Part shown: positions 6,287 through 48,013 of the stretch, one piece after another
Numbering within the stretch: position 1 is the first letter of the stretch
Layout: each line of letters starts with the position of its first letter
Origin: an uncultured Candidatus Saccharibacteria bacterium
Lineage (GTDB): Bacteria > Patescibacteriota > Minisyncoccia > UBA6257
Direction: 5' to 3'
Assembly: GCA_964479005.1 (NCBI GenBank)
Contig: CAYZJA010000002.1
Coordinates: 128,001-192,000, forward strand
Length of the DNA: 64,000 nt
Notes under the pieces: model-generated
What the model was told of the DNA's origin: nothing
The model's input: only the letters and a program-made list of their open reading frames with translations
Database searches by the model: none
Position numbers and translations under genes: made by a program

Positions 6287-7279
6287 ATGGTGAACATTTT
6301 AATTTCCAAAATTGATTTAAAAAATCTATATTTAGATAAAAAATTAACTACTTATGATATAGCTAAATTTTATAATTGTTCTCAGGGAACAATATGGAAA
6401 AGATTAAAAAGATTTAATATAAAAACGAGATTTTCTTGGAATGAGGTCAACCTTTCTAAGAAAAAACTGAGGGATTTATATACTAAAGATAAATTATCTA
6501 CTTGGCAGATAGAAAAGATTTTGAAAATACCTAGGAGTACAATTTATAGAAAACTTATAGATTATAATATTCCTGTAAGAAATCTGGCGCAGTCTCATAT
6601 TATTTATCCACGAAAGAATTTTAATGGAAACAAAACAGAAAAGGCTTATCTTATGGGTTTTGCAATTGGGGATTTAAGAGTAAGAAAAATATATAAAAAT
6701 AGTGAAACAATTCACATTGATTGTGGCTCTACTAAGAAAGAACAGATAAAACTTATATCAGATTTATTTAAACCTTATGGAAGGGTTTGGATTAGTAAAC
6801 CCAATAGGATAAAAGCTGTTCAAATAGAGTGTTCTGTCAATAATTCTTTCGGTTTTTTGCTAGAAAAGAAGAAATTTTTAGATAACTGGATTTTAGCTAA
6901 CAAAAGATATTTCTTTTCTTTCTTAGCAGGTTTTACTGATGCTGAAGGATGTATTTCAGTAACGTCAAAAGGACAAGCTTTCTATTCTTTAGGAAATTAT
7001 AATGATACACTCTTAAAACAAATAAGGGATAGACTCATTCGATGGGGAATAGAGGTGCCGAAACTTACTAGAAGCCGGACACATTTAGGGTATATTACTA
7101 AAGAGGGCTATACGATTAATCATATTTATTGGATACTGCACATTAATAGAAAACAATTCCTTCTGTTATTATTTGATTTAATGGGCCCGCATCTTAAGCA
7201 TTTTGCAAAAATTCAGGGGTTATTAAAGGCTCAAAAAAATATAGAAGAAAGAAATAAAAAAATTTTTAATTTAAAATGA
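6287..7279 (+). CDS. Free-standing LAGLIDADG-family (double-motif) endonuclease-like protein with two N-terminal HTH repeats
   Basis: Two LAGLIDADG-like motifs (LMGFAIGDLRV and FLAGFTDAEGCIS). They are preceded by two ~35-aa HTH-like repeats (TTYDIAKFYNCSQGTIWKRLKRFNI and STWQIEKILKIPRSTIYRKLIDYNI). Confidence 0.65.
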   Translation: MVNILISKIDLKNLYLDKKLTTYDIAKFYNCSQGTIWKRLKRFNIKTRFSWNEVNLSKKKLRDLYTKDKLSTWQIEKILKIPRSTIYRKLIDYNIPVRNLAQSHIIYPRKNFNGNKTEKAYLMGFAIGDLRVRKIYKNSETIHIDCGSTKKEQIKLISDLFKPYGRVWISKPNRIKAVQIECSVNNSFGFLLEKKKFLDNWILANKRYFFSFLAGFTDAEGCISVTSKGQAFYSLGNYNDTLLKQIRDRLIRWGIEVPKLTRSRTHLGYITKEGYTINHIYWILHINRKQFLLLLFDLMGPHLKHFAKIQGLLKAQKNIEERNKKIFNLK

Positions 7280-7316: not shown

Positions 7317-8801
7317 ATGTCTAAACATTGCATTTATATTTCTACTGCTATTGATTATCCTTCTAACAAGCCTCATCTTGGGCATGCTTTAGAAAAAATT
7401 CAAGCCGATGCTTTAGCGCGTTATTTTAGGTTCCAGGAGAAAGAAGTGTATTTTAGTACTGGGACTGATGAACACGGGCTTAAAATTCAAAAATGTGCAG
7501 AGAAAGCAGAAAAAACGCCTCAACAATTTGTTGATGAAATGGTTAGTTATTTTAAGAATCTTGATAAGGTTTTAGATATTTCTTACGATGATTTTATTAG
7601 AACGTCTGAGTCACGGCATATAAAAGTAGTAGAAGAGATAATTAAGAAAATCTATCAAAAAGGCGATATCTACAAAGGCAGATACAAAGGTTTGTATTGT
7701 ATGGAATGCGAAACTTATTATTTGCCAAAAGACATTCCAGAAGGGAAATGCCCTGTTCATCATTTGATGTTAGAGCAGGTTGAAGAAGAAACATATTTTT
7801 TCAAAATGGGCAAATATAAGGAGGAAATATTTAAACATATTCAAGAGAAATCTAATTTTATTATGCCTGAAAACAGAAAGAAGGAAATTCTGAATCGCCT
7901 TTCTGAACCTATTCAGGATTTAAGTATTTCTCGTAAAAATGTTAAATGGGGTATTCCTTTACCTTGGGACAAAGAGTTCACTTTGTTCGTTTGGGTAGAC
8001 GCTTTGATTAATTATTTATCTACTCTAGATTATTCGAAAGAAAGGTTTAAAAAATTTTGGTCGGATCAAAACGAAGTCTACCATATAATCGGGAAAGATA
8101 TTATTTGGCATCATAGTGTTATTTGGAGCAGTTTATTGCTTTCAGCTGGCTTACCTCTGCCTAAAACTATTTTTGTTCATGGTTTCATTACTGTTGAAGG
8201 AGAAAAAATGTCAAAATCATTGGGAAATATTATTAATCCTGTAGAGTTAGTTGAAAAATATGGCGCTGATGTAGTGCGTTATTTCCTTCTTCGAGAGTTT
8301 TCTCCTTTTGAAGATGGTGATTTTTCTGAACAAAGATTAAAGGAGCGTTATAATTCTGATTTGGCACAAGGCTTAGGTAATTTAGTTTCACGCGTCTTGG
8401 CTTTAGGAGAGCAATATGGGAAACAGATAATGGTTCAATGTTTGGATTCCGATTTGATTACTAAGTCTTGGAGCGATTATAAAAAGCAGATGGAAGCGTT
8501 TCGTTTTAATGATGCTTTAGCAACTACTTGGAATTTAATTTCTTATTGCGATAAATATATCAGTGATACGAAACCGTGGGAAAAAATTAGTGATGAAAAA
8601 GAATTTCAGAAAATCTTAGGCGCATTAGTATATATATTAGGTAATATTTCTTTAATGCTTTCTCCGGCAATGCCTAAAACATCTGAAAAGATACTCGAAT
8701 TTCTTAAATTACAAGGTAGATCAAAACAAGATTGGTTGTCACAAAAGGTTTTACTTGAAAAACAACCACCTTTGTTCCCAAAAAAGGAATCACGAAGTTA
8801 A
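7317..8801 (+). CDS. metG: Methionine--tRNA ligase (short form)
   Basis: Class I HIGH-type motif (PHLGHALE) and KMSKS motif (KMSKSLGN). At 494 aa it lacks the C-terminal tRNA-binding extension. Confidence 0.9.
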   Translation: MSKHCIYISTAIDYPSNKPHLGHALEKIQADALARYFRFQEKEVYFSTGTDEHGLKIQKCAEKAEKTPQQFVDEMVSYFKNLDKVLDISYDDFIRTSESRHIKVVEEIIKKIYQKGDIYKGRYKGLYCMECETYYLPKDIPEGKCPVHHLMLEQVEEETYFFKMGKYKEEIFKHIQEKSNFIMPENRKKEILNRLSEPIQDLSISRKNVKWGIPLPWDKEFTLFVWVDALINYLSTLDYSKERFKKFWSDQNEVYHIIGKDIIWHHSVIWSSLLLSAGLPLPKTIFVHGFITVEGEKMSKSLGNIINPVELVEKYGADVVRYFLLREFSPFEDGDFSEQRLKERYNSDLAQGLGNLVSRVLALGEQYGKQIMVQCLDSDLITKSWSDYKKQMEAFRFNDALATTWNLISYCDKYISDTKPWEKISDEKEFQKILGALVYILGNISLMLSPAMPKTSEKILEFLKLQGRSKQDWLSQKVLLEKQPPLFPKKESRS

Positions 8802-8803
8802 TT

Positions 8804-9655
8804 ATGTTTTTTGACTCTCATACACATTTAAATTTAGTTGCTTTTGACAAAGATAGAGAAGAAATAATAAGAAAAACCCTGGAACAGGGTATTTTTGTAA
8901 TTAATATAGGAACTTGCTATGAAACTTCTAAAAAAGCAATAGAAATTGCTCAACAATATGAAAATTGTTGGGCTACAGTAGGGTTACATCCTAGCCATAC
9001 AATACCAATGAAAATTGATAAAAGTGAATTAAAGATAAGTAGCAAGGAGGATGTATCAGAAGCAGAAGTTTTTAATGAAAAATTTGAATCACTTTTAAAA
9101 GAAGCCTTCAACTTTGCTCAGGGCAGGCCCAAAGTAGTAGCTATTGGTGAGTGCGGATTGGATTATAGTTATTTGAAAGATTTTTCTGGAAAGGATCAAA
9201 TAAAGTATGCAAAGATGGAAGAGGAAGAGTTTAGAAAACAAATTCAAGCTGCCAAAAAATATAATTTACCTTTGTCTCTACATATACGTGATTTATATGA
9301 AAAAGCCTTAATAATTTTGGAAGAAGAAAGATATAAGGGCGAGGCAGTATTCCATTTCTTTACTGGTAAAGTGAATCAGGCGCAAAAGATTTTAAAAAAA
9401 GGATTTTATTTAGGTTTTTCAGGTATCATTACATATTCAGAAATAATGAATGATGTTATTAAAAACGCACCGCTTGAGAAGATATTAATTGAAACAGACG
9501 CTCCTTACGTAGCACCAGTTCCTTATAGAAGCAATAGAAACGAGCCAATCTATGTAAAGGAAGTAGCTAAAAAAATTGCCCAGATAAAAAAACTTCCTCT
9601 AAAAAAGATAGAGGAAGCTACATTTAAAAACACTTTGCGACTTTTTGGAATATAA
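8804..9655 (+). CDS. tatD: TatD family metal-dependent hydrolase/DNase
   Basis: N-terminal FDSHTHL motif with ...GECGLDY and ...ETDAPY signature regions. Confidence 0.85.
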   Translation: MFFDSHTHLNLVAFDKDREEIIRKTLEQGIFVINIGTCYETSKKAIEIAQQYENCWATVGLHPSHTIPMKIDKSELKISSKEDVSEAEVFNEKFESLLKEAFNFAQGRPKVVAIGECGLDYSYLKDFSGKDQIKYAKMEEEEFRKQIQAAKKYNLPLSLHIRDLYEKALIILEEERYKGEAVFHFFTGKVNQAQKILKKGFYLGFSGIITYSEIMNDVIKNAPLEKILIETDAPYVAPVPYRSNRNEPIYVKEVAKKIAQIKKLPLKKIEEATFKNTLRLFGI

Positions 9656-11572: not shown

Positions 11573-11577
11573 TTTAG

Positions 11578-11667: not shown

Positions 11668-13350
11668 TTATTTATTTATTATTGTACGTTTAGTGTATAT
11701 ATACCAATTCTCAATATCAGCGAATTTTTCTGATGGCAGATTGGCATATTGAATATGATAACCTTTTATTTTTTGCGGAAGGATATAGAGATAAAAGGGA
11801 TTATAAAGAAAAAGGGCAGGTTTATCTTCAAAAAGTATACTTTGAATTGTTTTTAAGTCATTTGTTCGTTGTTCTTCATTAAAAGTTTGTCTCGTTTTTT
11901 CTAAAAGTTCGTCTAAGTCCTTATTTTGATAGGCAGAAAGGTTAAGACCTGGATCAGTTATTTGTGAAGAGTGCCAAAAAGAAAATAAATCAGGGTCTTG
12001 TCCTATAATTTCTCCAAAAAGCAGTGCGTCATAGGATCTAGTTTGAATAATTTCTTTTTCTAAAGTAGCCAATGGAAGAATTTGTAGTTCTACAGAAATT
12101 CCTATTTTTTCCCAGCAAGTTGCCAAATAATTAGCCACTCTGATTAATTCTAAATTATCAGGAAGTGAAAGAATAAAAGTTTTTTGGTCGGGCTCTAATT
12201 GTTCAATGATTTTTTTTGCGTTTTGTAGCGAATATTCTGGTGAGAAATTGAATTCTTCTTCTAAGAATCCGGGGGTAAAAGGACCTCCCAAAGGAAAAGC
12301 TTGTTCTTTTAATATTTCTGTCATTAATTCTTGTCGTGGTATTGCTAAATCTAGTGCCTGTCGAATTTCTTTTTGATCAAATAAAGAGTTTCTTAGATTT
12401 AAAAACACTGCATAATAACGGGGAAGGTACAAAGAAGCCATTTGGACGTTCTTTTTGCCTCCAAAGAAATCTACATCTTCGATTAAAACAGGAGAGAATC
12501 CGTCGATTTCTTTTTTTAATAATCCGCTCTTAGCTAAATCATAATTATCGTAAGAACGGAAGATTAATTTGGAAATATAAGGTTCTTTTTTAAAATAATT
12601 TTCATTAGCTACCAGAGAATAACTAATAATTTTTCCCAGTTTGTTTTTTTCTAAGCTGTCAAAAAGATATGGCCCTGTTCCAATTGGTTTAAGATTATAG
12701 TCCGCTGATAAAAAATTTCTTGATTCAATATTTTCCCAGATATGTTTTGGAATTATTTTTAAAGTAAGGTTTTGTAAGAATGGCTTATAAGGGTTTTTAA
12801 GATTAAAACGTATAACATGTGTCCCTAATTTTTCTACAATAACCCCTCCCCAATTTAATCTCAATGGGCTTCTTATGCTTGGATCTTGGATTGTCTCAAT
12901 TGTAAAAATTACATCATCTGCCGTGAAAGTCATTCCATCATGCCAAAAAACATTGTCCTTAAGGAATATGATATAGGTCTTGCCATCTTTACTAACTTCT
13001 GTTTTTTCTGCTAAATTAGTGATTAATTTTCCTTGTCCATCAATAGAATATAAGCCGTCATAAATTAATTCTATCAAGTCCTTATCATAGTCGTTGGATT
13101 GAGCTAAAACAGGGTTAATATAAGATGGGCGGCCAATGATGCCTAAATGTAAGACCCCTCCTTTTTCTGGTTCAAGTGTTGTAAATCTGCAAATAAAATT
13201 AAAAATTAGAAGAAAAATGCCGGCAAGCAGAAAGCATAAAAATAAAAAACCGAGAGTTTTCTTTTTTAATGGTAATTTTAACCACTTTTTAAATAAGGAG
13301 TACCTCGTTTCTCCCTTCGCTCGAAATAAAGAACTAAAAATGGTTTTCAT
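11668..13350 (-). CDS. ABC transporter substrate-binding protein, family 5 (peptide/nickel type), membrane-anchored
   Basis: Length and overall similarity to SBP_bac_5 oligopeptide-binding proteins. N-terminal TM/lipo-like segment. Confidence 0.7.
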   Translation of the reverse strand: MKTIFSSLFRAKGETRYSLFKKWLKLPLKKKTLGFLFLCFLLAGIFLLIFNFICRFTTLEPEKGGVLHLGIIGRPSYINPVLAQSNDYDKDLIELIYDGLYSIDGQGKLITNLAEKTEVSKDGKTYIIFLKDNVFWHDGMTFTADDVIFTIETIQDPSIRSPLRLNWGGVIVEKLGTHVIRFNLKNPYKPFLQNLTLKIIPKHIWENIESRNFLSADYNLKPIGTGPYLFDSLEKNKLGKIISYSLVANENYFKKEPYISKLIFRSYDNYDLAKSGLLKKEIDGFSPVLIEDVDFFGGKKNVQMASLYLPRYYAVFLNLRNSLFDQKEIRQALDLAIPRQELMTEILKEQAFPLGGPFTPGFLEEEFNFSPEYSLQNAKKIIEQLEPDQKTFILSLPDNLELIRVANYLATCWEKIGISVELQILPLATLEKEIIQTRSYDALLFGEIIGQDPDLFSFWHSSQITDPGLNLSAYQNKDLDELLEKTRQTFNEEQRTNDLKTIQSILFEDKPALFLYNPFYLYILPQKIKGYHIQYANLPSEKFADIENWYIYTKRTIINK

Positions 13351-13371
13351 TAGGATAAATAAGCAAAAAGA

Positions 13372-13590
13372 TTAAATCAGGAAACAGATAATTGATAGAG
13401 CGATAAATAAACCCCCTAATATAATAGTGAATACAAAAATTGTTTTTTCCAAACCCCTTCTCGTACCATAGAATTGAGAAGATATTCCTCCTAATACTCC
13501 CATTCCTCCTCCTCGCTGTTGCAAAAGCACAAGAATTATAAGAAGGATACCGATAACGATTTGAGCAATAGCTAAATCAAATTGATTCAT
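13372..13590 (-). CDS. secG: Preprotein translocase subunit SecG
   Basis: 72 aa, two TM segments, with the Gly-rich loop LLQQRGGGMGVLGG typical of SecG. Confidence 0.6.
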   Translation of the reverse strand: MNQFDLAIAQIVIGILLIILVLLQQRGGGMGVLGGISSQFYGTRRGLEKTIFVFTIILGGLFIALSIICFLI

Positions 13591-13689
13591 AATTAAAATA
13601 TTCTATTTTAATTTCAACGTCCTTGAGCGAAGACACGTTAAACGTGGCGAAGCGAAAGGTTGTTATAATTGTTTAATTTTTAATCATCA

Positions 13690-14052: not shown

Positions 14053-14174
14053 TTAATAGGGGTATTATACGTTAATAAGAACAAAAAGTCAAAAGTAAGA
14101 GATTATTTTGGGCAAAGCCACGTTTAACGTGGCAAAGCGAGAAAAAAGGTTCTGCGAGCAAAGTGAGCAGGCTC

Positions 14175-15791
14175 TTATTTTTTAATTCTAAGCAGTGGAA
14201 CTAAGCTTTGCCCCGTCATTTCTGAAGGGATTGGTAAACCAAATAATTCTAAAATTGTGGGTGTAACGTCGGCAAGCATTCCTCCAGCCCATTTTTCTAT
14301 TTCCAAAATTTCTTTTATTGAACGAGGAGAAGAAAATTTCCACCTTTTATCTATTAAATAAAAAGGAACAAGGCTGGTATCATGTTTGGTTTCTATTTCT
14401 CCAGTTAGAGGATTCATCATTCTCTCTAAATTGCCATGGTCAGCAGTAATAATAGTAGTATAATTCAATGCTTGGCTTTTTTGAATTATTTTTGCCACTT
14501 CCTGATCCATAATTTTCGCGCATTGAATACCCGCTTTCATATTGCCTGTATGGCCTATTAAATCAGGATTAGCGTAATTTACTAATATAAAATCATAAAT
14601 ATTTTCATCAAAAGATTGAAAAAGGCGCGTAGTAATTTCCGGAGCCCTTAATTCCGGATAATCTTCAAGATGCAAAGTTTTTATAGAAGGAATAATTACC
14701 CAATATTCACCCGGGAATGGTTTTTCTTTAAATCCGTCGAAAAAATATGTAACATGGGCGTATTTTTCCGTTTCTGCTAAATGAAGTTGTCGTTTTCCAG
14801 CCTTAGAAAGTATTTGAGATAAACAGGTAGAGATTTTTTGAGGGGGGAATGCTACTGGTAAAGCAAAATCTTTTTTATATTGAGTAAATGTAGTAATTTT
14901 CAATTCTTGGAATTTTTTAATAGGAAATTTGTCAAATTGAGGATTAATAAAAGGCTCTACCAATTGTCGCATTCTTTCTTCGCGAAAATTGAAGAATATA
15001 ATGCCATCTTGTTCTTTGATAATACTTGAAGGATCTTGTTCGTTTGGATCACCAATCAGTGCCGGAACAATAAATTCATCAGTAATGCCTTCTTTATAAG
15101 ATTTTTCTAAATAAGCGAGAGCATCATCTTCTGTTTTGCATTTACCAAAAACTAAAGCGTTATAACATTTAGCTATTCTGTTAAAATTATTATCTCTATC
15201 CATGGCATAAAAACGTCCTGACAAGCTGGCGATTTTGCTTTTCCCCCGTATTTTTATATCTTCTTGCAATTGAATTATTAATTCTTTTGCTTTTGTTGGA
15301 GAAGAATCTCGTCCATCAGTAAAAAGATGCAAATTTATTTTTTCTATCTTGAGAGAATTGGCTAAATCCAAAAGCGCCATAAGGTGCTCGTAAGAACTAT
15401 GGACAATATTATTACTAAATAAACCGGCTAAGTGTAATGTGCTATTATTCTTTTTAACATGGTTATAGGTTTTCAACAAAGCTGGGTTTTGGAAAAAAGA
15501 TCCATTTTGTATGCTTTGTGAAATACGGACAGAATATTGGTATAAAATTTGACCAGTGCCTAATGTTAAATGGCCTACCTCGCTGTTTCCGGCTTTGTTA
15601 AATGGCAATCCTACAGAAATACCTGATGCTTGTAAAGAAACCATAGGATAATATTTTTTAATTTCATCAATATTTGGAGTACCAGCTCTATGGATAGCAT
15701 TAGAAAAATCTTTTTTTCCTATTCCCCAACCATCTAAAATTATTAAACAAATTTTTGAACAAAGGCCAAACATATAACAATTAATTAACAA
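14175..15791 (-). CDS. gpmI: 2,3-bisphosphoglycerate-independent phosphoglycerate mutase
   Basis: ILDGWGIG N-terminal motif and the length of cofactor-independent PGM. The true start is probably the internal Met at 15773. Confidence 0.85.
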   Translation of the reverse strand: MLINCYMFGLCSKICLIILDGWGIGKKDFSNAIHRAGTPNIDEIKKYYPMVSLQASGISVGLPFNKAGNSEVGHLTLGTGQILYQYSVRISQSIQNGSFFQNPALLKTYNHVKKNNSTLHLAGLFSNNIVHSSYEHLMALLDLANSLKIEKINLHLFTDGRDSSPTKAKELIIQLQEDIKIRGKSKIASLSGRFYAMDRDNNFNRIAKCYNALVFGKCKTEDDALAYLEKSYKEGITDEFIVPALIGDPNEQDPSSIIKEQDGIIFFNFREERMRQLVEPFINPQFDKFPIKKFQELKITTFTQYKKDFALPVAFPPQKISTCLSQILSKAGKRQLHLAETEKYAHVTYFFDGFKEKPFPGEYWVIIPSIKTLHLEDYPELRAPEITTRLFQSFDENIYDFILVNYANPDLIGHTGNMKAGIQCAKIMDQEVAKIIQKSQALNYTTIITADHGNLERMMNPLTGEIETKHDTSLVPFYLIDKRWKFSSPRSIKEILEIEKWAGGMLADVTPTILELFGLPIPSEMTGQSLVPLLRIKK

Positions 15792-18082: not shown

Positions 18083-18101
18083 AAGAGATAGATTTCTTTT
18101 T

Positions 18102-18134
18102 AAAACCCCGACTAAATTAGTCGGGGTTTTAAAA
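18102..18134 (+). terminator. Rho-independent terminator after hup
   Basis: AAAACCCCGACT-aaatt-AGTCGGGGTTTT hairpin followed by a T-run. Confidence 0.8.
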
Positions 18135-18185
18135 ATTTGAGTTTTTTATCTTATTATCCTATTAAACTTCTTTTGGCTCCTTTTT

Positions 18186-18283
18186 TTATTATGAGCCGAA
18201 GGCGAATAACAAGGTTCTCGCGAGGCGGGGTTCTTATTATGAGCCGAAGGCGAATAACAAGGTTCTCGCGAGGCGGGGTTCTT
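18186..18283. repeat. 2 x 48-bp tandem direct repeat (TATTATGAGCCGAAGGCGAATAACAAGGTTCTCGCGAGGCGGGGTTCT)
   Basis: Perfect tandem duplication read from the sequence. It belongs to the AAGCGA..AAGGTTCT..GGTTCTTATTAT intergenic repeat family (see findings). Confidence 0.8.
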
Positions 18284-19082: not shown

Positions 19083-19127
19083 TAATTGTTTTAATTTTTT
19101 AAAATTTATGTGCCGCCACGTTTAACG

Positions 19128-19202
19128 TGGTGCCTGGGCGGTGAATCGAACACCGGACGCTTTGCTCTTCAAGCAAACGCTCTACCACTGAGCTACCCAG
19201 GC
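19128..19202 (-). tRNA. tRNA-Phe (GAA), CCA encoded
   Basis: Reverse complement gives GCCTGGGTAGCTCAGTGGTAGAGC-G-TTTGC-TTGAAGA-GCAAA...GGTGTTCGATTCACC...CCCAGGC-A-CCA. Confidence 0.85.
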
Positions 19203-19274
19203 TTAAACTCAGATTACCAGTTTAGCATAATAGATTTTTAAAGTAAAGAAAAGCAATAAATCCAAATAAATTAG

Positions 19275-19348
19275 TGGGCAGTAGAGGACTCGAACCTCTG
19301 GCCTCATGGATGTAAACCAAGCGCTCTAACCAACTGAGCTAACTGCCC
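19275..19348 (-). tRNA. tRNA-Val (TAC), tentative; U-U mismatch in the anticodon stem
   Basis: Reverse complement gives GGGCAGTTAGCTCAGTTGGTTAGAGC-G-CTTGG-TTTACAT-CCATG...AGAGGTTCGAGTCCTCT-ACTGCCC-A. Confidence 0.6.
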
Positions 19349-19374
19349 TAATTTTTAGTGGACCACGTCTAATG

Positions 19375-19452
19375 TGGTGGACCCAGTGGGAGTCGAACCC
19401 ACGACCTTGCGCATGCCATGCGCACACTCTAAACCAACTGAGCTATGGGCCC
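19375..19452 (-). tRNA. tRNA-Ala (GGC), G3:U70, CCA encoded
   Basis: Reverse complement gives GGGCCCATAGCTCAGTTGG...TGCGC-ATGGCAT-GCGCA...GTGGGTTCGACTCCCAC-TGGGTCC-A-CCA. Confidence 0.85.
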
Positions 19453-19611
19453 ATACCACATGATGAATTCTATCAGTTTTTTTATTTTGAGTAAAGCGAG
19501 AAACAAGGTTCTCCTAAGTGAAGCGTAGGAGGTTCTTATTATTTTTCAAGAAAAATTTGAATTTCTTTATTTATTTTAATAAATAAACATGGTATTATTA
19601 AAGATATAATT

Positions 19612-20463
19612 ATGAAGCTTGCACTAAAGGAAATGGAAGATTTGGCGACCACTATCCGCCAAGAAATAATAGGAATGCTTTTAAAAGCAAAATCAGGCCA
19701 TTGCGCGGGTCCTTTAGGCGCGGTGGAATTATATATCGCTCTTTATTTTAGCGGAATTTTAAATTATGATTCTAAAAATCCAAATTGGGAGGAAAGAGAT
19801 AGGGTTGTCATTTCCAATGGGCATTATGCTCCTTTAATTTATACTATTTTAGCCCATGCTGGGTTTTTTCCTTTGGAGGAATTAAAAACCTCAAGAAAAT
19901 TAGGAAGTAGACTTCAAGGCCATCCTCATCGTTTATCTTTGCCGGGAATTGAAACTTCTTCTGGTCCAGTTGGAGAAGGTCTTTCTCAGGCAATTGGTAT
20001 GGCTTTAGGGGCAAAAATAGATAAAAAGAAGATTCAGGTTTATTGTTTAATGGGAGACGGAGAGCAAGATTGCGGTAATACTTGGGAAGCAGTAATGATG
20101 GCGGGAAAGCATCAATTAGATAATCTAACGGCTATTATTGACAGAAATAACATTCAGATTGACGGGTTTACTGAAAATGTGATGCCTTTAGAGCCATTAA
20201 AAGAAAAGTATGAATCTTTTGGTTGGAAAGTTTTGGAAGTAGATGGTCATAATATTCCAGAAGTTATTAAAGCTCTAAATACTTCTAAATCTGTTTTTGT
20301 TAAACCCGTGGTAATTATTGCTCACACTATTCCTGGAAAAGGAGTAGATTTTATGCAATGGGAATATCAATGGCATGGGAAGACGCCAAATTCAAAACAA
20401 GCTGAAGAAGCTTTGCGGCAGCTGAGGAGCATGAAAGGGCAAATTGAATCAGAATTAGATTAA
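19612..20463 (+). CDS. Transketolase, N-terminal (TPP-binding) subunit of a split transketolase
   Basis: GHCAGPLG ... GDGE ... NN motif pattern of the TPP-binding half. 283 aa. Confidence 0.85.
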   Translation: MKLALKEMEDLATTIRQEIIGMLLKAKSGHCAGPLGAVELYIALYFSGILNYDSKNPNWEERDRVVISNGHYAPLIYTILAHAGFFPLEELKTSRKLGSRLQGHPHRLSLPGIETSSGPVGEGLSQAIGMALGAKIDKKKIQVYCLMGDGEQDCGNTWEAVMMAGKHQLDNLTAIIDRNNIQIDGFTENVMPLEPLKEKYESFGWKVLEVDGHNIPEVIKALNTSKSVFVKPVVIIAHTIPGKGVDFMQWEYQWHGKTPNSKQAEEALRQLRSMKGQIESELD

Positions 20464-20520
20464 AAATTAAAGGTTGATTAAATTAATTAATAAAATAATA
20501 ATAAATAAAAAAATAAAAAT

Positions 20521-21972
20521 ATGTATAAATCTTTTATATTTTTAGCAGCTGCAATTTTATTTTTAGCAGCAGCTTTAATTTCTACACCCAAAAGTATAGT
20601 ATGGTGGGGTAGAAGCAAATTAGTAGAAAAAATTCCAGTAGGTCAAACCCAAGAAGTTGAACTGGTATTTACTAGTAGAAAGGATTTTAAAGAAGTGAAT
20701 TTGAGCGTTTCAGATGATCTAAGCAGATTTATGAGCAGTTTTGAGCCAACAACTCTAGAAGTAGTAAAAGATCAACCTAATAAGATAAATGCTTTTATAA
20801 ATGTACCCTCAGATGTTAGTCCTGATACTTATGGTGGAACTATCCATCTTCGAGCAGGGAAAAGAACTATTGGTAAGCCTTTGGCTGTTAATATTATTGT
20901 GATTCCTGCGCAAGAGCCTATTCCCCCTACAGTACCTTCATGGTCATTACCAGCAAATATTTCTAATTCAGTAATTACTTCATATAAACCAAAGGTTTTG
21001 CAGGATACATCAGGAAATGTTTATGCTTTATGGCTGGATTCTGATTTTACTTCGCAATACAAACTTTATTTTTCTAAATTAGAAGGTGAAGTTTGGAGTT
21101 CTCCTCAGCATATTATTTCTTCTGATAGATACAGTCCATTATACGATTTTGATTTTACTATTGATAGCCAAAATCAGATTCATTTGGTTTATACCCAAAC
21201 TGTTTCAGGCTCTGGCTATATGATACATTATACATTCTATAATGGAATTGAATGGTCGACTCCACAAAAAGTTTGTCAGGGATTTAGTCCTTCAATTGAA
21301 GTTGATTCTGCTGATAGGGTTCATATAGCTTATTCTTCTTTTTCAGATATTTTCTATTCAAATTTTAATGGAACTACCTGGTCTTCTTCTGTTAATGTTT
21401 CTGATGATGGACAGCTTTACGGAGATTATACTTCAGGAGCCAAAGCTATTAGAATTGATAAATCAGGAGATATTCATATTGCTTGGGCTAAGTATAATTT
21501 TGGAATAATGTACACAAAATTTGATAGTAAAACTTGGAATGTTCCTCAATTGGTTTCCAAATTAGCATTGTGGCCAGATAATACATATTGGCTCAGTCTT
21601 GGCGCTAATGGAGTTGTGGCAGTGGCTTATACTCAAGGCCCGAATGATTGTATAAATCAAGAAATTTATTTTTCCCTTAGTGAAGACGGAGGATTAAGTT
21701 GGTATAGTCCAACCCAGATTTCTGAGTCAGCTGGCATTGGTTCTCGTTGGCCATCTTTATCTATTGTTTCTGCAAATAATATTCAAGCTGTATGGGGAGA
21801 ATGCCAAACAGGAGTTCCTTTCCGTTTGTTTAACGGGACTAGTTGGTCTGATATTATTGATATTGGTAATGGAGCTCAAAAAGCGGATTTGCCAAATATC
21901 TCAGCTTATGGAAATAAGTCTTATGCAGTATGGGGCTTTAATAACGAGGTTTACTTTAGCCAGGGTCAATAA
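20521..21972 (+). CDS. Secreted BNR/Asp-box repeat (sialidase-like beta-propeller) protein with N-terminal Ig-like domain
   Basis: Signal/TM N-terminus, then repeated motifs such as SGNVYALWLDS, SQNQIHLVYTQ, SADRVHIAYSS, SGDIHIAWAK and SEDGGLSWYS (SxDxGxTW-like). Confidence 0.55.
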   Translation: MYKSFIFLAAAILFLAAALISTPKSIVWWGRSKLVEKIPVGQTQEVELVFTSRKDFKEVNLSVSDDLSRFMSSFEPTTLEVVKDQPNKINAFINVPSDVSPDTYGGTIHLRAGKRTIGKPLAVNIIVIPAQEPIPPTVPSWSLPANISNSVITSYKPKVLQDTSGNVYALWLDSDFTSQYKLYFSKLEGEVWSSPQHIISSDRYSPLYDFDFTIDSQNQIHLVYTQTVSGSGYMIHYTFYNGIEWSTPQKVCQGFSPSIEVDSADRVHIAYSSFSDIFYSNFNGTTWSSSVNVSDDGQLYGDYTSGAKAIRIDKSGDIHIAWAKYNFGIMYTKFDSKTWNVPQLVSKLALWPDNTYWLSLGANGVVAVAYTQGPNDCINQEIYFSLSEDGGLSWYSPTQISESAGIGSRWPSLSIVSANNIQAVWGECQTGVPFRLFNGTSWSDIIDIGNGAQKADLPNISAYGNKSYAVWGFNNEVYFSQGQ

Positions 21973-21986
21973 ATCCCTACACCATT

Positions 21987-22988
21987 ATGCTTAATCCCGA
22001 TATTAAATTAAATCCTAAAATTTTTACAGAAAAGATTAAACGAATTTCTCCACGCGATGGCTTTGGAGAAGGTTTGGTTTTAGCCGGAGAAATGAATGAA
22101 AGAATAGTGGCTTTGTGCGCTGATGTAACTGAGTCTTTGAGGATGCATTTATTTAGAGACCGTTTTCCAGAAAGATTTATTGAAGTAGGAATTGCTGAAC
22201 AAAATATGGCTGGTATTGCTTCGGGATTAGCAGCTTCGGGAAAAATTCCTGTAATGGGAACTTATGCTGTTTTTTCTCCTGGAAGAAATTGGGAACAAAT
22301 TAGAACAACAATTTGCTATAATCAGCAAAAAGTTATTCTTGTTGGTTCTCACGCAGGATTAAACGTAGGGCCTGATGGCGCTAGTCATCAGGCCTTGGAA
22401 GATATTGCCTTAATGAGAGTTTTACCTAATATGGCAGTGGTATGTCCTGCCGATGCTTTAGAAGCCCGTAAAGCCATTCTTTCAGCAATTGAATATCCGA
22501 ACTCTATATATATTCGTTTGCCTCGGGAGAAATCACCTGTTTTTACAACAGAAGAAACATCTTGGCAGATTGAAAAATCTCAGGTTCTTTGGCTTCCAAA
22601 ATCTGAGAAGAAACAATTCTCTGGAATTACTATTTTTGTTTGTGGGCATTTAGTATACAAAGCATTAGAAGCAGCTAAAGAATTAGAACAAGAAGGCATA
22701 TTAATAGCAGTTATAAATAATTCAGCTATTAAGCCGTTAGATAAAGAAACAATATTGAAATGGGCTAAAAAATCTAAAGCCATAATTACTTTGGAAGAAC
22801 ATCAAATAGCTGGTGGTATGGGATCAGCTATAGCAGAGTTTTTAAGCGAGAATCATCCTCTGCCCATTAAATTTATGGGAATAAAAGATGAATTTGGACA
22901 GAGTGGTCAGGCAGAGGAATTATTAGCAAAATATAATCTTGATAAGGAAGCGATAAAAGAAACCGTAAAAGAAATGATACAAGATTAA
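21987..22988 (+). CDS. Transketolase, C-terminal (pyrimidine-binding plus C-terminal domain) subunit
   Basis: Similar to the transketolase central and C-terminal domains (EVGIAEQNMAGIASGLA..., GSHAGLNVGPDGASHQALEDIALMR). Confidence 0.85.
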   Translation: MLNPDIKLNPKIFTEKIKRISPRDGFGEGLVLAGEMNERIVALCADVTESLRMHLFRDRFPERFIEVGIAEQNMAGIASGLAASGKIPVMGTYAVFSPGRNWEQIRTTICYNQQKVILVGSHAGLNVGPDGASHQALEDIALMRVLPNMAVVCPADALEARKAILSAIEYPNSIYIRLPREKSPVFTTEETSWQIEKSQVLWLPKSEKKQFSGITIFVCGHLVYKALEAAKELEQEGILIAVINNSAIKPLDKETILKWAKKSKAIITLEEHQIAGGMGSAIAEFLSENHPLPIKFMGIKDEFGQSGQAEELLAKYNLDKEAIKETVKEMIQD

Positions 22989-24859: not shown

Positions 24860-25624
24860 TTATCCTCTTGCTAGAACTAAACCAATTACCTTTTTCGCAC
24901 CATTCTTTTTTAAGATTTTTGCCGCTTCCTGCATTGTTGCTCCAGAAGTATAAACATCGTCAATTAAAATTATCCATTTATTTTTAATTAGATTTAGATT
25001 AGAAATAGAAATTTGAAAAACATCTTTGGTATTTTTTTCTCTTTCAATAAAATTATTGATTTTTGCCTGTGGTGGATTATTTTTAATTCTGAGAAGAATT
25101 TTAGGATGAAAATTCAGAGAAAAATGAGAAGCAACAACTTTTGCCAATAATTCTGATTGATTAAATCCTCTTTGCCTTCTTTTCCTTGTATGTAATGGGA
25201 TAGGAATTAGTAATATATTCTTTTTATTCATTTCAGAAAAAAAGTTGGTTTCTTTTAAAAATCTTATCATTAAATCAGCCAGAGGTTTTTGCAATGAAAT
25301 AATTGGCTGATATTTAAAAAGATGAATAGTTTTTCTGATGATTGAATTTTTATAAAAAGAAACTACGCCCAAAGCGAATAAATGGGTTTTACAAAAACAA
25401 GAGCGTTTAGAAAAATTAGTTATTCTTTTCTTACAGATGGGGCAAATGAAAGAATAGTTAATTGGGATATTCTTTTGGCATTTTTTACAAAGCGGGTAAG
25501 AAAAATGGACTTCTTTTTTACAAGAAACACATTGCCAAGGGAAAAAAGTATCTAAAAGTAATTTTAAAAAACGGTGTCCCCGTTTAACGGGGCTATCACC
25601 GCGTTTGACGTGGTGGGGCATCAA
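24860..25624 (-). CDS. comFC: ComF family protein (ComFC-like phosphoribosyltransferase-domain competence protein)
   Basis: N-terminal double CxxC zinc finger (CVSCKK...CPICKK) and C-terminal PRTase motif IILIDDVYTSGATM. The exact start is uncertain; the first codons overlie a palindromic element. Confidence 0.75.
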   Translation of the reverse strand: MMPHHVKRGDSPVKRGHRFLKLLLDTFFPWQCVSCKKEVHFSYPLCKKCQKNIPINYSFICPICKKRITNFSKRSCFCKTHLFALGVVSFYKNSIIRKTIHLFKYQPIISLQKPLADLMIRFLKETNFFSEMNKKNILLIPIPLHTRKRRQRGFNQSELLAKVVASHFSLNFHPKILLRIKNNPPQAKINNFIEREKNTKDVFQISISNLNLIKNKWIILIDDVYTSGATMQEAAKILKKNGAKKVIGLVLARG

Positions 25625-42194: not shown

Positions 42195-42266
42195 GGGCGA
42201 CTAGCTCAGTGGTAGAGCGCGTCTCTGATAAAGACGAGGTCACAAGTTCGATCCTTGTGTCGCCCA
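42195..42266 (+). tRNA. tRNA-Ile (GAT)
   Basis: GGGCGAC-TA-GCTC-AGTGGTA-GAGC-G-CGTCT-CTGATAA-AGACG-AGGTC-ACAAGTTCGATCCTTGT-GTCGCCC-A. Confidence 0.85.
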
Positions 42267-42281
42267 CAATTTTCCTCCATC

Positions 42282-42357
42282 GGGCCCGTAGCTTAATTGG
42301 TAGAGCGCCTGTGTTGCATACAGGAGGTTGTCGGTTCGAGTCCGATCGGGTCCACCA
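42282..42357 (+). tRNA. tRNA-Ala (TGC), G3:U70, CCA encoded
   Basis: GGGCCCG-TA-GCTT-AATTGGTA-GAGC-G-CCTGT-GTTGCAT-ACAGG-AGGTT-GTCGGTTCGAGTCCGAT-CGGGTCC-A-CCA. Confidence 0.85.
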
Positions 42358-42488
42358 CGTTAGACGTGGTCCACCACGTTAAACGTGGTGGACTTCAAAA
42401 TTTCTCCTTGCTTGACTAAGCTATATCTTATATAATAGAAGTATAAAAATTAAAGGTCGATAAAACTAAAATTTAAAATATAAAAAAT

Positions 42489-43172
42489 ATGTTTAATACT
42501 ATAGCTCAAGCTAGTTCCACTGCTTTGTTTGATTTATGGAATGGATTCATTTTGTTTTTACCTACTTTAATAGGAGGGTTTATAGTTTTTATTGTAGGTG
42601 TAATAATTGGTAATGGTATTGCCCAATTAGTAGAGAAATTGATTGATCTCTTAAAAATTGATCCAATTTTGGAAAAGGTTGGATTTAAACAAGTTACTGA
42701 TAAAGCTGGCATTCGTTTAGACGTAGGATTTTTTGTAGGTCAGATTGTCAAGTGGTTAATTATCCTGTCGTTCTTAGTGGCTGCTTGCAATATCTGGAAT
42801 TTGTCAGCTGTTGGTGATTTTATCAGAAGCATAGTTAATTATCTTCCAAATGTTTTAGTCGCGATCTTGATTCTTTTAGCGGCTATTGTTTTGGGAGAAT
42901 ATTTTGCTAAGTTTGTCCGCGCTTCTGTCGCAGGAGCTGGATTAAAATATCAGCACTTTCTAAGCGGTGTATCCCGTTGGGTATTTGTTATATTTGGACT
43001 CATAGCAGCTTTATCTCAATTACAAGTTGCTCCTTATATTATCAATACCTTCTTTACGGGAATTGTGGCTATGATGGCAATAGCCGGAGGTTTGTCATTC
43101 GGTTTAGGAGGAAAAGATTTAGCACGTGAATTATTGGCAAAGTTGAAAGGAGATTTAGAAGGAGGAGAGTAA
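42489..43172 (+). CDS. Membrane protein with two conserved-TM-helix repeats (MscS-like TM_helix type, tentative)
   Basis: Two similar halves, each with paired TM helices. No cytoplasmic MscS domain. Confidence 0.45.
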   Translation: MFNTIAQASSTALFDLWNGFILFLPTLIGGFIVFIVGVIIGNGIAQLVEKLIDLLKIDPILEKVGFKQVTDKAGIRLDVGFFVGQIVKWLIILSFLVAACNIWNLSAVGDFIRSIVNYLPNVLVAILILLAAIVLGEYFAKFVRASVAGAGLKYQHFLSGVSRWVFVIFGLIAALSQLQVAPYIINTFFTGIVAMMAIAGGLSFGLGGKDLARELLAKLKGDLEGGE

Positions 43173-43175
43173 GAC

Positions 43176-43203
43176 TTGACAAATTATTTTTCTTTGCTAT
43201 AAT
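43176..43203 (+). promoter_or_regulatory. Sigma70-type promoter P1 (TTGACA-16 nt-TATAAT) upstream of 23S
   Basis: Consensus hexamers read directly from the sequence. Confidence 0.6.
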
Positions 43204-43287
43204 GGAAGTGCTGTTGTCTTGAGGTATATAGCTTGCTATATATTAAAGGGCAGCAGCATTTTTTTATACACAAAACTCAATAAGGGG

Positions 43288-43315
43288 TTGACTTTTAAAA
43301 AATATTTACTATAAT
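43288..43315 (+). promoter_or_regulatory. Sigma70-type promoter P2 (TTGACT-16 nt-TATAAT) upstream of 23S
   Basis: Near-consensus hexamers read directly. Confidence 0.55.
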
Positions 43316-44129
43316 TAAAATACTTCTATTTTAATTGCAACGTTCTTGATTTATAATCAGAAAGTTGCAATAATAAGAAGGCTGAATAAAATATGAAAAT
43401 CTTTAAAGAAAACTCTCAGAAACAAAGAAGTTGGTAGGTGTATTACACACGTATTTTAACGCCACCACTTCATGGTGGCTTTTTTAATCCAAGATTTTCT
43501 GACAGAGAGTTCACAAGAGATGACTGAACTTTGAAAACGACTGTCTTTAGTTTGTCTTTTCACTAAAGATGGGAAAGTTGTATTAAGGGCAGATGGTGGA
43601 TGCCTTGACACAGTAAGGCGATGAAGGACGCGGCGTAGCTGCGATAAGCCTCGGGAAGGTGCGTAGTAACCTTTGATCCGGGGATTTCCGAATGGGGCAA
43701 CCCATTCCGATTAATATCGGAATATCCTGATTTTAATAATTAGGAGGCGTACCTGGGGAAGTGAAACATCTCAGTACCCAGAGGAAAAGAAAACAATAAA
43801 ATACATTTTACTACTGTTGTTTAGTACTGAATAGTAGCTAAATGTATTTGTGATTCCTTGAGTAGCGGCGAGTGAAAGAGGAGAAGCCTAAACCAAGCAT
43901 TCAATTTATTGAGTATTTGGGGTTATAAGGTGGATGCGCGGAAGCTTCGGCTTTCAAAATTTAAATCATAATTAATTAAATTATCTGGAAAGATAAACCA
44001 CAGAGGGTGAAAGTCCCGTAGATGAAAATTATTATTGAATTTAGTATCTTTTCTTAATTACCTCGGGGACAGATAACCTTGAGGGAAGGATCCGGAACTA
44101 TACCGGAAAGGCTAAATACTTACTGTGAT

Positions 44130-44175
<46 letters not shown>

Positions 44176-45733
44176 GAGGGGAGTGAAATAGAACCTGAAA
44201 CCATTTTGCCTACAAGCAATCGAAGTCGAGCACTCAGTTTTCTGAGTGCTGGATAACGGTGTGCCTATTGAAGAATGAGCCGACGAGTTTATATCTACTG
44301 CTTAGATTAATTTCGTAAATCGAAAGTAGTCATAGGGAAACCGAGTGTTAATAGCGCGTCATTAATTCTTCTTTTTATCTCGGTTTTCGGGATAAAAAGA
44401 TTAATTAAAATGTAGTGGATATGAGACCCGAAGCCAGGCGAGCTTGCCATGACCAGGATGAACCCCATAGAAATATGGGTGGAGGTCCGAACCCGTGAGC
44501 CGTTCAATACTCTGGGATGAGTTGTGGTAAGGAGTGAAAAGCTAATCGAGCCTGGGAATAGCTGGTTCTCCCCGAAATAGCTTTAGGGCTAGCGGGCTAT
44601 TTATCCTTATGGGGGTAGAGCACTGGATGGTGTGTATAGGGCGAAAGCTCAGCTCACCAATCAAACTCCGAATACCATTAAGGTTATGATAGCCTAGTTA
44701 GACTATGGGGGCGAAGCTCCATGGTCAAAAGGCAACGAATCCAGATCGCAGTTTAAGGTCCCTAAATTTTGGTTAAGTGCTGTCAAAGGTAGTAATTTAC
44801 CATAGACAATTAGTAGGTTGGCTTAGAGGTAGCCATCCTTTAAAGAGTGTGTAACAACTCACTATTCGATCTTGATCTTCGGATCAAGGTGGTAAATTGC
44901 GCCGAAAATGTATCGGGGCTAAAACCAAATACCGAAAACGCGAATTTATCCCAACTAAGGTTGGGGTGAGTGGTAGGGGAGCGTTTCTTAAGCATTGAAG
45001 TTCATAACGTGAGTTTGGATGGAGCTTAAGGAAGTGAGAATGTCGGCATGAGTAACCACAATCCTGATGAGAATTCAGGACTCCGTAAACCTAAGGTTTC
45101 TTTGGCAATGACAATCAGCCAAAGGTTAGGCGGTCCTAAGGCAATGGCGAAAGCTGCAGCCGATGGACAGCCGGTTAATATTCCGGCCCTTCCATTTTTT
45201 TCGATGGGATGACGGAGTGTAGTAGATCGAGCATCTTAGTGGTCTGATGTCTTCGACCGAGAGTGTGTGTCAGGCAAATCCGGCGCATGGTCCCGATTTA
45301 TCGGGACAACTTTCAGGGTAGAAGCGAATTAAGGTTTTTCCTTAATAAGTTGATCGAGCGCACTTCCAAGAAAAATCTCTAAGAATAGGAAAATGGAATC
45401 CGTACCGTAAACCAACACAGGTAGGTGAGGCGAGTAGCCTCAGGAGAACGAGTGATTCCTCGTTAAGGAACTCGGCAAAAAAGCGGGCGTAACTTCGGGA
45501 TAAGCCCTTCCTACCTAAATTTTGCTTGCAAAGTTTAGGCAGGGCGCAGCGAAAGTTTCCCTGGCGACTGTTTACCAAAAACACAGGTCCCTGCGAAACC
45601 GTAAGGTGATGTATAGGGGCTGATGCCTGTCCGATGCCAGAAGGTTAAGAGCGTCGGTCATTTCGATTTATCGGAATGGCTAAGTGCTTGAAGCCCTGGT
45701 CAATGACAGCGATAACTATAATCGTTCTAAGGT

Positions 45734-46449: not shown

Positions 46450-47110
46450 AGCGTAATTCCTTGTCGGGTAATTTCCGACGTGCATGAAAGGTATAACGAC
46501 TGGGGAACTGTCTCAACGAGGAGCTCGGTGAAAATGCGTGTCCAGCGAAGACGCTGGGTACCCGCAGCAAGACGAAAAGACCCTAGAAGCTTTACTACAG
46601 CTTGGTATTGAATTTAGTTTTAATCTGCGTAGCGTAGCGGGGAGACTTTGAAGTTTCGCTTTCGGGCGAGATGGAGTCGCCAATGAAACACCCGTCTTTT
46701 TGAAGCTATGTTCTAATCCCGACGGCAAAAACGTCGTGAGACAGTGCCTGGTGGGTAGTTTTCGTGGGGCGCGATCCTCCTAAAGAGTAACGGAGGAGCC
46801 TACTAAGGTTGGCTATCTGCCAATGGAAACGGCAGAGGTAGTGTAAAGGCAAAAGCCAGCTTTATAGTGAGGGAGACATCCCAAACTATTGCGAAAGCAG
46901 AGCTTAGTGACCCGATACGTCATTGTAGAATGCGTAGAGACGTCGGATAAAAGCTACTCTAGGGATAACAGGCTGGTGGAGCCCGAAAGTTCATATCGAC
47001 GGCTCCGCTCGGCACCTCGATGTCGGCTCATCTTATCCTGGGGCTGAAGAAGGTCCCAAGGGTTTGGCTGTTCGCCAATTAAAAAGATACGCGAGCTGGG
47101 TTCAGACCGT

Positions 47111-47838: not shown

Positions 47839-47980
47839 CGTGAGACAGGTCGGCCTCTATCTGCTGTGGGCGTTCGATACTTGAGGAGAGCTGATCGCAG
47901 TACGAGAGGACCCGATTGGACGAACCTCTGGTCTACCGGTTGTCCTGCCAAGGGCATCGCCGGGTAGCTATGTTCGGAAG

Positions 47981-48013
<33 letters not shown>

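Follow-up and report, generated by a model that had tools for sequence, protein, structure and literature searches.

The palindromes of the Neurospora mitochondrial genome have an 18-nucleotide (nt) double-PstI core. Described from Neurospora crassa as GC-rich PstI palindromes (Yin, Heckman & RajBhandary 1981; Nargang et al. 1983; PMC4478555, PMC7218506), they are short near-perfect GC-rich dyads in an AT-rich genome that flank tRNA genes and were first read as processing signals. Here, we describe a bacterial palindrome of which the same can be said, found in a 64-kb stretch of DNA (the window, by which we mean the whole stretch analysed) that has the gene content of a bacterial chromosome and belongs to a member of the Patescibacteria/Paceibacterota. 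Its core comprises 13 base pairs (bp), CACGTT-N-AACGTG, in which two 6-bp inverted arms surround one unpaired base. We put the probability at about three in four that this palindrome is an ultra-short insertion element, generating target-site duplications (TSDs) and favouring GC-rich heptamers that end in C, and not a conserved tRNA signal; the element appears to behave as neutral or selfish DNA. This reading rests on the enrichment of the palindrome, on alignments of filled and empty sites at all six loci where it occurs, on flanking direct repeats and on independent insertions in other lineages.

Fungal mitochondrial mobile palindromes, that is, the Neurospora PstI palindromes, MUSE1 and the GC clusters, are the closest functional analogues of the element. 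The likeness extends to a short GC-rich dyad in an AT-rich genome (the GC content of the window is 32%) that is optional at all six loci, and stops short of organellar residence and sequence relatedness. The Neurospora palindromes are mitochondrial, have another sequence and border the majority of tRNA and rRNA genes at both ends, whereas ours adjoins only some tRNA 3′ ends, has clear target duplications and includes demonstrably recent copies. MUSE1 of Podospora mitochondria (Koll et al. 1996; PMC7218506, PMC2670323) is an 11-bp sequence with more than 100 copies; it resembles our element as a mobile unit of ~11–13 bp that may be present or absent in close relatives and is far too short to have coding capacity, and differs in being mitochondrial and in its proposed mechanism, which involves an intron-encoded reverse transcriptase (RT) and endonuclease, no RT having been seen in the window. 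The GC clusters of yeast mitochondria (GC42; Wu & Hao 2015, PMC4478555) are likewise palindromic, non-autonomous and sporadic, vary in their loops while keeping their stems and form tandem or composite units, but they are 30–50 nt long, organellar and of more complex structure.

Bacterial repeats are further removed. Repetitive extragenic palindromes and their paired forms (REP/REPIN; PMC3733652, PMC3116915) are RAYT-linked imperfect palindromes of 20–40 bp with a GTAG or CGTC tag; like our element they are extragenic hairpins that occur as singletons and dimers, at gene 3′ ends, inside other palindromes and sometimes in frame in open reading frames (ORFs), but they are thought to move single-stranded and without target duplication. 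Our core, in contrast, is near-perfect at 13 bp (15 bp with flanks), has no GTAG or CGTC tag and lies between direct repeats of 4–7 bp that are single in empty sites. Miniature inverted-repeat transposable elements (MITEs; Correia/NEMIS, RUP and others) span ~50–500 bp, have internal sequence, a matching insertion sequence (IS) and a fixed TSD, and share with our element the inverted termini and TSD, the lack of autonomy, the position near genes and the nesting in other repeats (PMC3184786). In our case the terminal inverted repeats, CACGTT/AACGTG, are the whole element, its size is far smaller (13 bp, or 33 bp for a dimer) and no parent IS was found in the window or in 1.46 Mb of related loci. 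Rickettsia palindromic elements (RPEs) measure ~100–150 bp and add 30–50 residues; the copy that we call F, in a comFC-like gene, resembles them only as an in-frame palindromic insertion that leaves the ORF open, and differs in consisting of two mini-units that add 13 residues. Among the papers searched, we found the exact core sequence in no relevant one, and no description of palindromic repeats for Patescibacteria.

Palindrome copies and empty sites

Scanning both strands of the window for CCACGTTWRACGTGG with up to two mismatches, alongside shuffled sequence, yielded 8 sites (16 strand matches) in 64 kb, where shuffles averaged 0.06 and none reached 8. A sequence-only reading of the window had pointed out this recurring palindrome and asked for its count to be set against chance; run on the window, that comparison places it far above the shuffles. 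The sites, at 13633–13647, 14118–14132, 19116–19130, 19363–19377, 25578–25592, 25599–25613, 42355–42369 and 42374–42388, group into six loci (A–F). Four copies adjoin three tRNA 3′ ends, and the variant copies placed away from tRNAs by the same reading are those of D, E and F (13633, 14118, 25578 and 25599). The hexamers CCACGT and ACGTGG are nearly confined to the 8 sites. The copies cluster at 13.6–42.4 kb of the window, with a density of ~1 per 8 kb, and none was found in the 14.6 kb flanking it (10 kb upstream and 4.6 kb downstream), which bring the source-genome DNA covered to ~79 kb.

A ninth match, CGTTTAACG at 63717, was set aside as chance, being located within a gene and missing the outer arms. 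The window sequence is identical in several independent assemblies (JGI, Logan) and is therefore not an assembly artefact; an assembly or adapter origin was also rejected on the grounds that copies vary, recur in independent assemblies and projects, and have decayed orthologous versions. Rfam, at gathering and permissive thresholds, returned no family for the palindrome or for the repeats hosting its copies.

We compared the window with ~1.7 Mb of related Paceibacterota loci (denoted by L numbers), collected through a genome-collection scan with the transketolase N-half protein, a metagenome scan with the small membrane protein encoded beside tRNA-Ala-TGC, and tRNA-rich neighbourhoods of other strains reached via identical or near-identical HU proteins; the nearest species representatives show 88–93% identity over the transketolase N-half. 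Each of the window copies is absent from the orthologous site of one or more relatives. At least 15 related lineages lack the palindrome behind the corresponding tRNAs, and most relatives are without the motif, so that the comparison at orthologous tRNAs, which the sequence-only reading had proposed, speaks against conservation. Empty orthologous sites together with target duplications show that its suggestion of a mobile palindromic repeat named the right class.

Insertion A (19110..19129, minus strand) is 20 bp long and follows tRNA-Phe, with its core at 19117–19129 (tRNA sense CACGTTAAACGTG), its distal repeat GCGGCAC at 19110–19116 and, as the proximal copy, the tRNA end itself at 19130–19136. 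The site is empty in L015, L012, L180, L182, L189 and L200, in which ...GGCAC runs directly into ataaac, as against the 20 extra bp, CACGTTAAACGTG GCGGCAC, of the window; L195 carries a decayed copy, TACGTTAAACATA GCAGCAC, with four transitions. Insertion B (19358..19376, minus strand) adds 19 bp behind tRNA-Ala-GGC, with the core at 19364–19376 (tRNA sense CACATTAGACGTG) and the distal repeat GTCCAC at 19358–19363. The empty site in L015, L189, L193 and L180 reads GGGTCCAC followed by taaaaattagggcag, and the filled site in the window GGGTCCAC, CACATTAGACGTG, GTCCAC and taaaaattagggcag. B sits between tRNA-Ala and tRNA-Val, which are encoded 26 nt apart on the same strand, and contains an A-C mismatch in the tRNA sense. 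Double insertion C (42356..42393, plus strand; 38 bp) lies behind tRNA-Ala-TGC in the order core1 (42356–42368), GTCCAC (42369–42374), core2 (42375–42387) and GTGGAC (42388–42393). Its spacer GTCCAC is a copy of the target, and the distal GTGGAC is an inverted, not direct, copy of the flank, which together with core2 produces a perfect palindrome, GTCCACCACGTTAAACGTGGTGGAC; this is 25 nt long and spans 42369–42393, not the 24 nt at 42369..42392 first reported. Site C is empty in L150, where GGGTCCAC meets ttcaaaatttc, and also in L136–L148.

The remaining loci lie away from tRNA genes. Copy D (13627..13653, no strand assigned) has its core at 13634–13646 between GCGAAGA (13627–13633) and GCGAAGC (13647–13653), within a repeat unit of ~85 bp (13586–13670) that has secG on one side and a holin-like gene on the other; L008 shares this copy, and L015 and L010 lack the entire 85-bp unit. 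Copy E (14112..14138, no strand assigned) is a 20-bp insertion in a terminator-like repeat module downstream of iPGM, in which GCAAAGC (14112–14118), the core (14119–14131) and GCAAAGC (14132–14138) follow one another; L008 has the module intact without the insert (TTTTGAGCAAAGCGAGAAAC), compared with GCAAAGC, CACGTTTAACGTG and GCAAAGC in the window. Double insertion F (25577..25615, minus strand; 39 bp), with cores at 25579–25591 (CCCGTTTAACGGG) and 25600–25612 (CGCGTTTGACGTG), lies in frame after codon 2 of the comFC-like gene (24860–25621, minus strand) and adds HHVKRGDSPVKRG, so that the window protein reads MP-HHVKRGDSPVKRG-HRFLK where relatives have MPRRFLK; both units are translated, 13 residues are added and the frame is kept. 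L007 and L008 are without the insert (AAAAAAC joined directly to GG(T/C)GG(G/A)GCAT), and the same double insert is present in L195.

Two side observations concern these sites. A comparison of tRNA-Phe alleles (window 19110–19136, L195 11200–11230, L180 6800–6830) showed that CGGCAC of the distal repeat of A fits perfectly the allele of L195 and L015 (..TCGGCA) and not that of the window (..CAGGCA), which is common to L180 and L200, both without insert A; this mismatch points to inter-strain recombination with a breakpoint at the tRNA end. The 85-bp unit that hosts D is itself repeated, as a copy with CCTCGTTAAACGGGG in L142 (610–695) at a site empty in the window (~41965), and the left half of the unit is similar to sequence that precedes the 23S gene (window 43296–43349).

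Over these sites, a single insertion adds 19 or 20 bp, namely the core plus a 6–7 bp direct repeat of the target, and doubles add 37–39 bp. Across all insertions, the direct repeats measure 4–7 bp (6 or 7 for monomers, 4–7 for dimers), depending on the boundary drawn, which is ambiguous by 1–3 bp, such that 13+6/7, 15+4/5 or 12+7/8 are possible. Scored by the match between flanking direct repeats, copies reach 6/6 (B, C1), 7/7 (E) and 6/7 (D, the L152 copy and the L142 copy). Viral contigs served as a chance control: the same 15-mer turns up in them 50 times, never with comparable flanking repeats. The 13-bp core is seen as a palindrome of 15–17 bp because targets end in C, often in CAC, and repeats restart with G. 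Copies vary mostly in the unpaired centre (TAA, TAG, TCA, TTG), and a second subfamily, CCCGTT..AACGGG, carries symmetric arm changes from CAC/GTG to CCC/GGG (F1, L152, L142).

The core is found alone or as a dimer of ~33 bp (core, 6–8 nt spacer, core), and four tandem doubles are known: C in the window, F in the window and L195, one in L152/L153, and one at tRNA-Leu-CAG of L195. The last is a 37-bp dimer insertion behind the tRNA, at a site empty in L189, L202 and the window, in which the CAC of the tRNA doubles as the CAC of the core; the L152/L153 dimer insertion measures 38 bp and follows a tRNA-Ile 3′ fragment. L152/L153 also have a monomer, between GCGAAG and CAAAGCGAG. As the L152 and L195 dimers have the common spacer GTAYRGG, in opposite insertion orientation, the 33-bp dimer moves as a unit as well, and since insertions differ between closely related lineages, the family has been active recently. 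One match, in L138, was rejected as a native 23S helix with compensatory changes.

Some of these relatives show features of their own. In L066, a Niyogibacteria relative, a different palindrome, TTTCGTAACGGGATGAATCCCGTTACGAAA, is present twice, ~85 bp apart at 7515–7630, and short palindromic repeats may be common in the phylum. L180, whose HU protein is identical, encodes an RT (RVT_1) and a bAvd-like gene at 12172–13480, between transketolase-C and pfkB, a pair that is the signature of a diversity-generating retroelement and is absent from the window. L152 contains tRNA 3′-half fragments (Ile-like, Ala-like) around tRNA-Ile/tRNA-Ala at 8730–9250, with a possible interrupted tRNA-Ala, which suggests repeated integration or rearrangement at these tRNAs.

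Target heptamers and tRNA 3′ ends

ARAGORN and Rfam located 8 tRNA genes in the window, and confirmed that palindromes directly abut tRNA-Phe (minus strand, ends 19128/19130), tRNA-Ala-GGC (minus strand, 19375/19377) and, as a tandem pair, tRNA-Ala-TGC (plus strand, 42355/42357), as the sequence-only reading had it. Three of the six loci thus fall exactly at one of 8 tRNA ends, for which p is ~4e-8 among ~6.2 kb of unannotated positions, and 5/8 tRNAs of the window carry no palindrome at the 3′ end.

Over all lineages there are ~9 independent loci, five of them at the 3′ ends of tRNAs or tRNA fragments and always in the same register; of the non-tRNA loci, three lie in the GCRAAGC heptamer of short repeat modules and one at GCCCCAC, at codon 2–3 of the comFC-like gene. 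The preferred targets therefore appear to be rare GC-rich heptamers, G-S-Y-Y-Y-R-C in one orientation, followed by AT-rich DNA. In AT-rich non-coding DNA such heptamers are probably scarce, and limited mainly to the last 7 nt of tRNA genes (acceptor 3′ strand, N73 and C74) and the GCRAAGC repeat heptamer. The junction falls in unannotated window DNA for only 17 GSYYYRC heptamers, 7 of them being the element-flanking copies themselves; as the consensus comes from these very sites, the figure serves only as a consistency check. An insertion past C74 does no damage to the tRNA, whose end serves as the proximal repeat, and the association with tRNAs would follow from the scarcity of target heptamers elsewhere and the tolerance of insertions there, which together suffice to explain it. 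Remnants of att sites left by a tRNA-targeting integrase were considered and rejected, in view of a duplication of only 4–7 bp and the same palindrome unit at non-tRNA sites.

Insertion may also be oriented. All 8 tRNA-linked cores have A or C, and never T, at the centre when read on the tRNA-sense strand, even in the two homologous dimers of opposite orientation (L152, L195), which hints at strand specificity; with six cores A and none T (two-sided binomial p ~0.03), the sample is too small to build on.

The GCRAAGC heptamer, a hot spot for the palindrome, belongs to a recurring module of the form TTATTTyGAGCrAAGCGAGAAAC-AAGGTTCT-(GC-rich hairpin)-(A)GGTTCTTAT, then T-rich DNA. Its hairpin varies in sequence but is always paired, and has a loop of GAAG/GTGA type. 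The module has no Rfam match; it occurs in the window at 14105–14190, 18183–18278 (two tandem 48-nt units) and 19480–19545, and in relatives at L008 3540–3610 and 5400–5480, L015 5670–5740, L152 9245–9385 and L172 ~1100; it looks like a family of terminator-like (bidirectional) or structured-RNA modules.

We also asked where the tRNA genes themselves end. The tRNA-Phe-GAA gene (19130..19202, minus strand) has its true end, N73-C74, at 19130, and the genes for tRNA-Ala-GGC (19377..19452, minus strand) and tRNA-Ala-TGC (42282..42355, plus strand) likewise end at C74. Their orthologues end N73-C followed by A or T, with no encoded CCA. Among 102 distinct tRNA genes from the window (for example at 11577, 19274, 34726 and 42267) and loci L006–L209, C74 is encoded in 100, and the full CCA in only 19, three of which are the window genes with an insert. 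The apparent encoded CCA is a by-product, in which the C74 of the gene meets the CA with which the inserted core begins; it is not an ancestral gene-encoded CCA. The claim that the tRNA's own CCA forms part of the hairpin stem accordingly fails, as the CA belongs to the element and only C74 to the gene. In the clade's tRNA genes, position 75 is mostly A or T, and a near-universal encoded C74 without C75-A76 is unusual; such C74-only genes suggest a particular route of 3′ maturation or CCA repair in these Patescibacteria.

Mode of spread and competing explanations

In one possible mechanism, which we hold only tentatively, a nuclease or transposase-like enzyme acting in trans and encoded outside the window would recognise the symmetric core and insert it at a staggered break, whose overhangs would then be filled in to yield the target duplication. 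A hairpin or template-switch component is plausible because of the variable repeat length, the microhomology between element and target, the inverted C2 flank and the symmetric arm variants, the first three of which hint at such steps rather than a classical fixed-stagger DDE reaction. The three LAGLIDADG ORFs of the window were rejected as mobilisers, as 4-nt cuts would not yield duplications of 6–7 bp.

Several points weigh against the insertion-element reading. Pfam scans of 40 window ORFs, together with Pfam matches at ~9.6–26 kb, revealed no transposase, integrase, RAYT/HUH or RT, and the window and 1.46 Mb of related loci contain no longer CACGTT...AACGTG element (30–4000 bp) with a TSD, the only matches of that search being the dimers and one L066 hit from the unrelated palindrome pair. 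To our knowledge, a 13-bp element is smaller than any known transposase substrate, and for DDE enzymes duplications of 4–7 bp would be an unusually wide range. With ~9 independent loci the sample is small, and the target consensus is derived from the sites that it explains. The internal spacers of F and of the L152/L195 dimers are not target copies, the flanks of F are weakly repeat-like, and its internal structure is not cleanly reconstructible. Presence and absence do not track HU identity, L180 (identical HU) being without A and B and L195 (93%) having A and F; on account of this mismatch, inter-strain recombination or precise loss via the flanking repeats would also contribute. Function may, moreover, have been gained after insertion. 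The broadest form of the proposal is doubtful, namely that the 13-bp hairpin unit and its 33-bp dimer are the smallest target-duplicating mobile element described in a bacterium, moved by an enzyme or by hairpin/template-switch steps, homing strand-specifically to GC-rich heptamers and turning CCA-less tRNA genes into CCA-encoding ones.

The main rival, which we consider unlikely, is an enzyme-free template switch during replication or repair, whereby a growing strand that has reached the end of a GC-rich heptamer (...CAC or ...GC) would jump by microhomology to an existing copy, copy the core, snap back, realign upstream and re-copy 4–7 nt. This would fit the 4–7 bp variation in duplication length, the CAC/C and G termini that element and targets have in common (including the CAC shared with tRNA-Leu in L195), the symmetric arm variants, the lack of a transposase among the scanned window ORFs, and the inverted flank of C2, GTCCAC..GTGGAC, which is what snap-back synthesis would give. 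The boundaries and length of the core are, however, very constant, and the insertions are clean, with no other templated sequence; the process would need to have happened repeatedly, at sites unrelated to one another, in just a few lineages, and we know of no precedent for 13-bp units spreading in this way in bacteria.

Far less probable are excision footprints, in which a larger cut-and-paste transposon with CACGTT... termini and a 6–7 bp TSD would have left its terminal 6 nt from each side. The sites are indeed polymorphic, and the succession of TSD, 6-nt end, 1 nt, 6-nt inverted end and TSD resembles footprints of P-element/Tc1 type. Such footprints are normally heterogeneous, whereas these copies are uniform, and no full-length element with these ends and TSD was found in the window or the 1.46 Mb of related loci; a transposon would have had to visit and leave eight times within 30 kb, and the conserved-spacer dimers at two tRNAs and the copy nested in the 85-bp repeat point to a small unit that moves.

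A functional role was the first suggestion made for the hairpin, which would terminate tRNA and mRNA transcripts or direct the processing or protection of their 3′ ends, with the CCA-UGG stem controlling tRNA maturation; we regard this as highly improbable, and the comparative data largely refute it. In its favour, predicted folds of the tRNA-Phe and tRNA-Ala-GGC precursors place the hairpin beside an intact cloverleaf and include the proposed pairing of CCA with a downstream UGG, copies D and E follow minus-strand genes at a distance of ~43 nt, and G-U-compatible variants exist. In the minimum free energy fold of tRNA-Ala-TGC, in contrast, the acceptor 3′ strand is paired with the distal GUGGAC, so that the acceptor stem, and with it the tRNA fold, is predicted to face competition from the double copy. 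An intrinsic-terminator scan flagged 0 copies, and no copy is followed by a T-tract (the trailers are cggcacataaa, taaaaatt and ttcaaaat), though a canonical terminator is present in the same window at 18097–18135. The copies are not confined to the ends of transcription units, B lying between co-oriented tRNAs, with its A-C mismatch, and F within a coding sequence; nor are they conserved at orthologous ends, those sites being empty in the at least 15 lineages mentioned above, just as the palindrome is lacking at five of the window's own tRNAs. As copy A has decayed in L195, it is evidently under no constraint there. A transcript hairpin is thus predicted to form, but neither as a terminator nor as a processing signal is it conserved, and of the earlier suggestion the dispersed, hairpin-forming repeat associated with tRNA ends stands, while the conserved signal falls to its lineage specificity, the missing T-tract, F in a coding sequence and the decay in L195.

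DNA uptake sequences occur at ~1 per kb, inside and outside genes, and are common to related species. Least credible of all is a site for a dimeric DNA-binding protein (an operator or parS-like site) or for DNA uptake: despite a perfect 15-bp dyad and the parA/parB, dprA, comFC and pilus genes of the window, the sites arose by insertion with target duplication and not by drift of promoter DNA, occupy positions unfit for regulation (tRNA 3′ ends, gene 3′ ends, codon 3 of a coding sequence), are lacking in close relatives expected to have the same regulator or uptake specificity, and are far too sparse for uptake sequences (8 in 64 kb, clustered, none in the 14.6 kb of flanks), and the parS consensus TGTTNCACGTGAAACA has no match better than chance.

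Neighbouring features and significance

The rRNA region of the window (42195–48284), in which C resides, is atypical, with no 16S before tRNA-Ile/tRNA-Ala and with the gene for a 227-aa membrane protein (42489–43172, MscS-type transmembrane helix) between tRNA-Ala and 23S. The 23S gene spans 3569 nt compared with a 2925-nt model and contains a LAGLIDADG ORF (45819–46310); a second such ORF (47243–47707) and then a sub-threshold group I intron match (47717–47831) precede 5S. A free-standing ORF with HTH_23 and LAGLIDADG_3 domains (6287–7279) lies between an AI-2E transporter gene and metG. A duplication of ~660 bp with 80–90% identity (51222–51883 and 57986–58674) covers parts of two YceG-like genes (51008–52018, 58120–58809) that flank a polysaccharide-synthesis cluster, and a 22-nt tandem repeat (TAATGTAGTAACATTGCTAAGG-like, ~4 copies) is situated at 710–797 between recO and a DUF11 surface-protein gene. 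Transketolase is split into N and C halves (19612–22988) with a 483-aa ORF between them that has a faint BNR_4 match only, an arrangement conserved in relatives.

The finding extends ultra-short mobile palindromes from the organelles of fungi and algae, where they were known, to the free chromosome of a bacterium in the Candidate Phyla Radiation, and the loci provide unusually clean pairs of filled and empty sites. A target-duplicating unit of 13 bp calls into question the minimum size assumed for mobile DNA and offers a tractable substrate for finding the enzyme or repair pathway responsible. For annotation, such elements create false calls of encoded CCA, can be mistaken for terminators or RNA motifs, and insert in frame into genes. 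For the organisms themselves, in which tRNA genes encode C74 and rarely CCA, they are natural experiments on tRNA 3′-end maturation in Patescibacteria.

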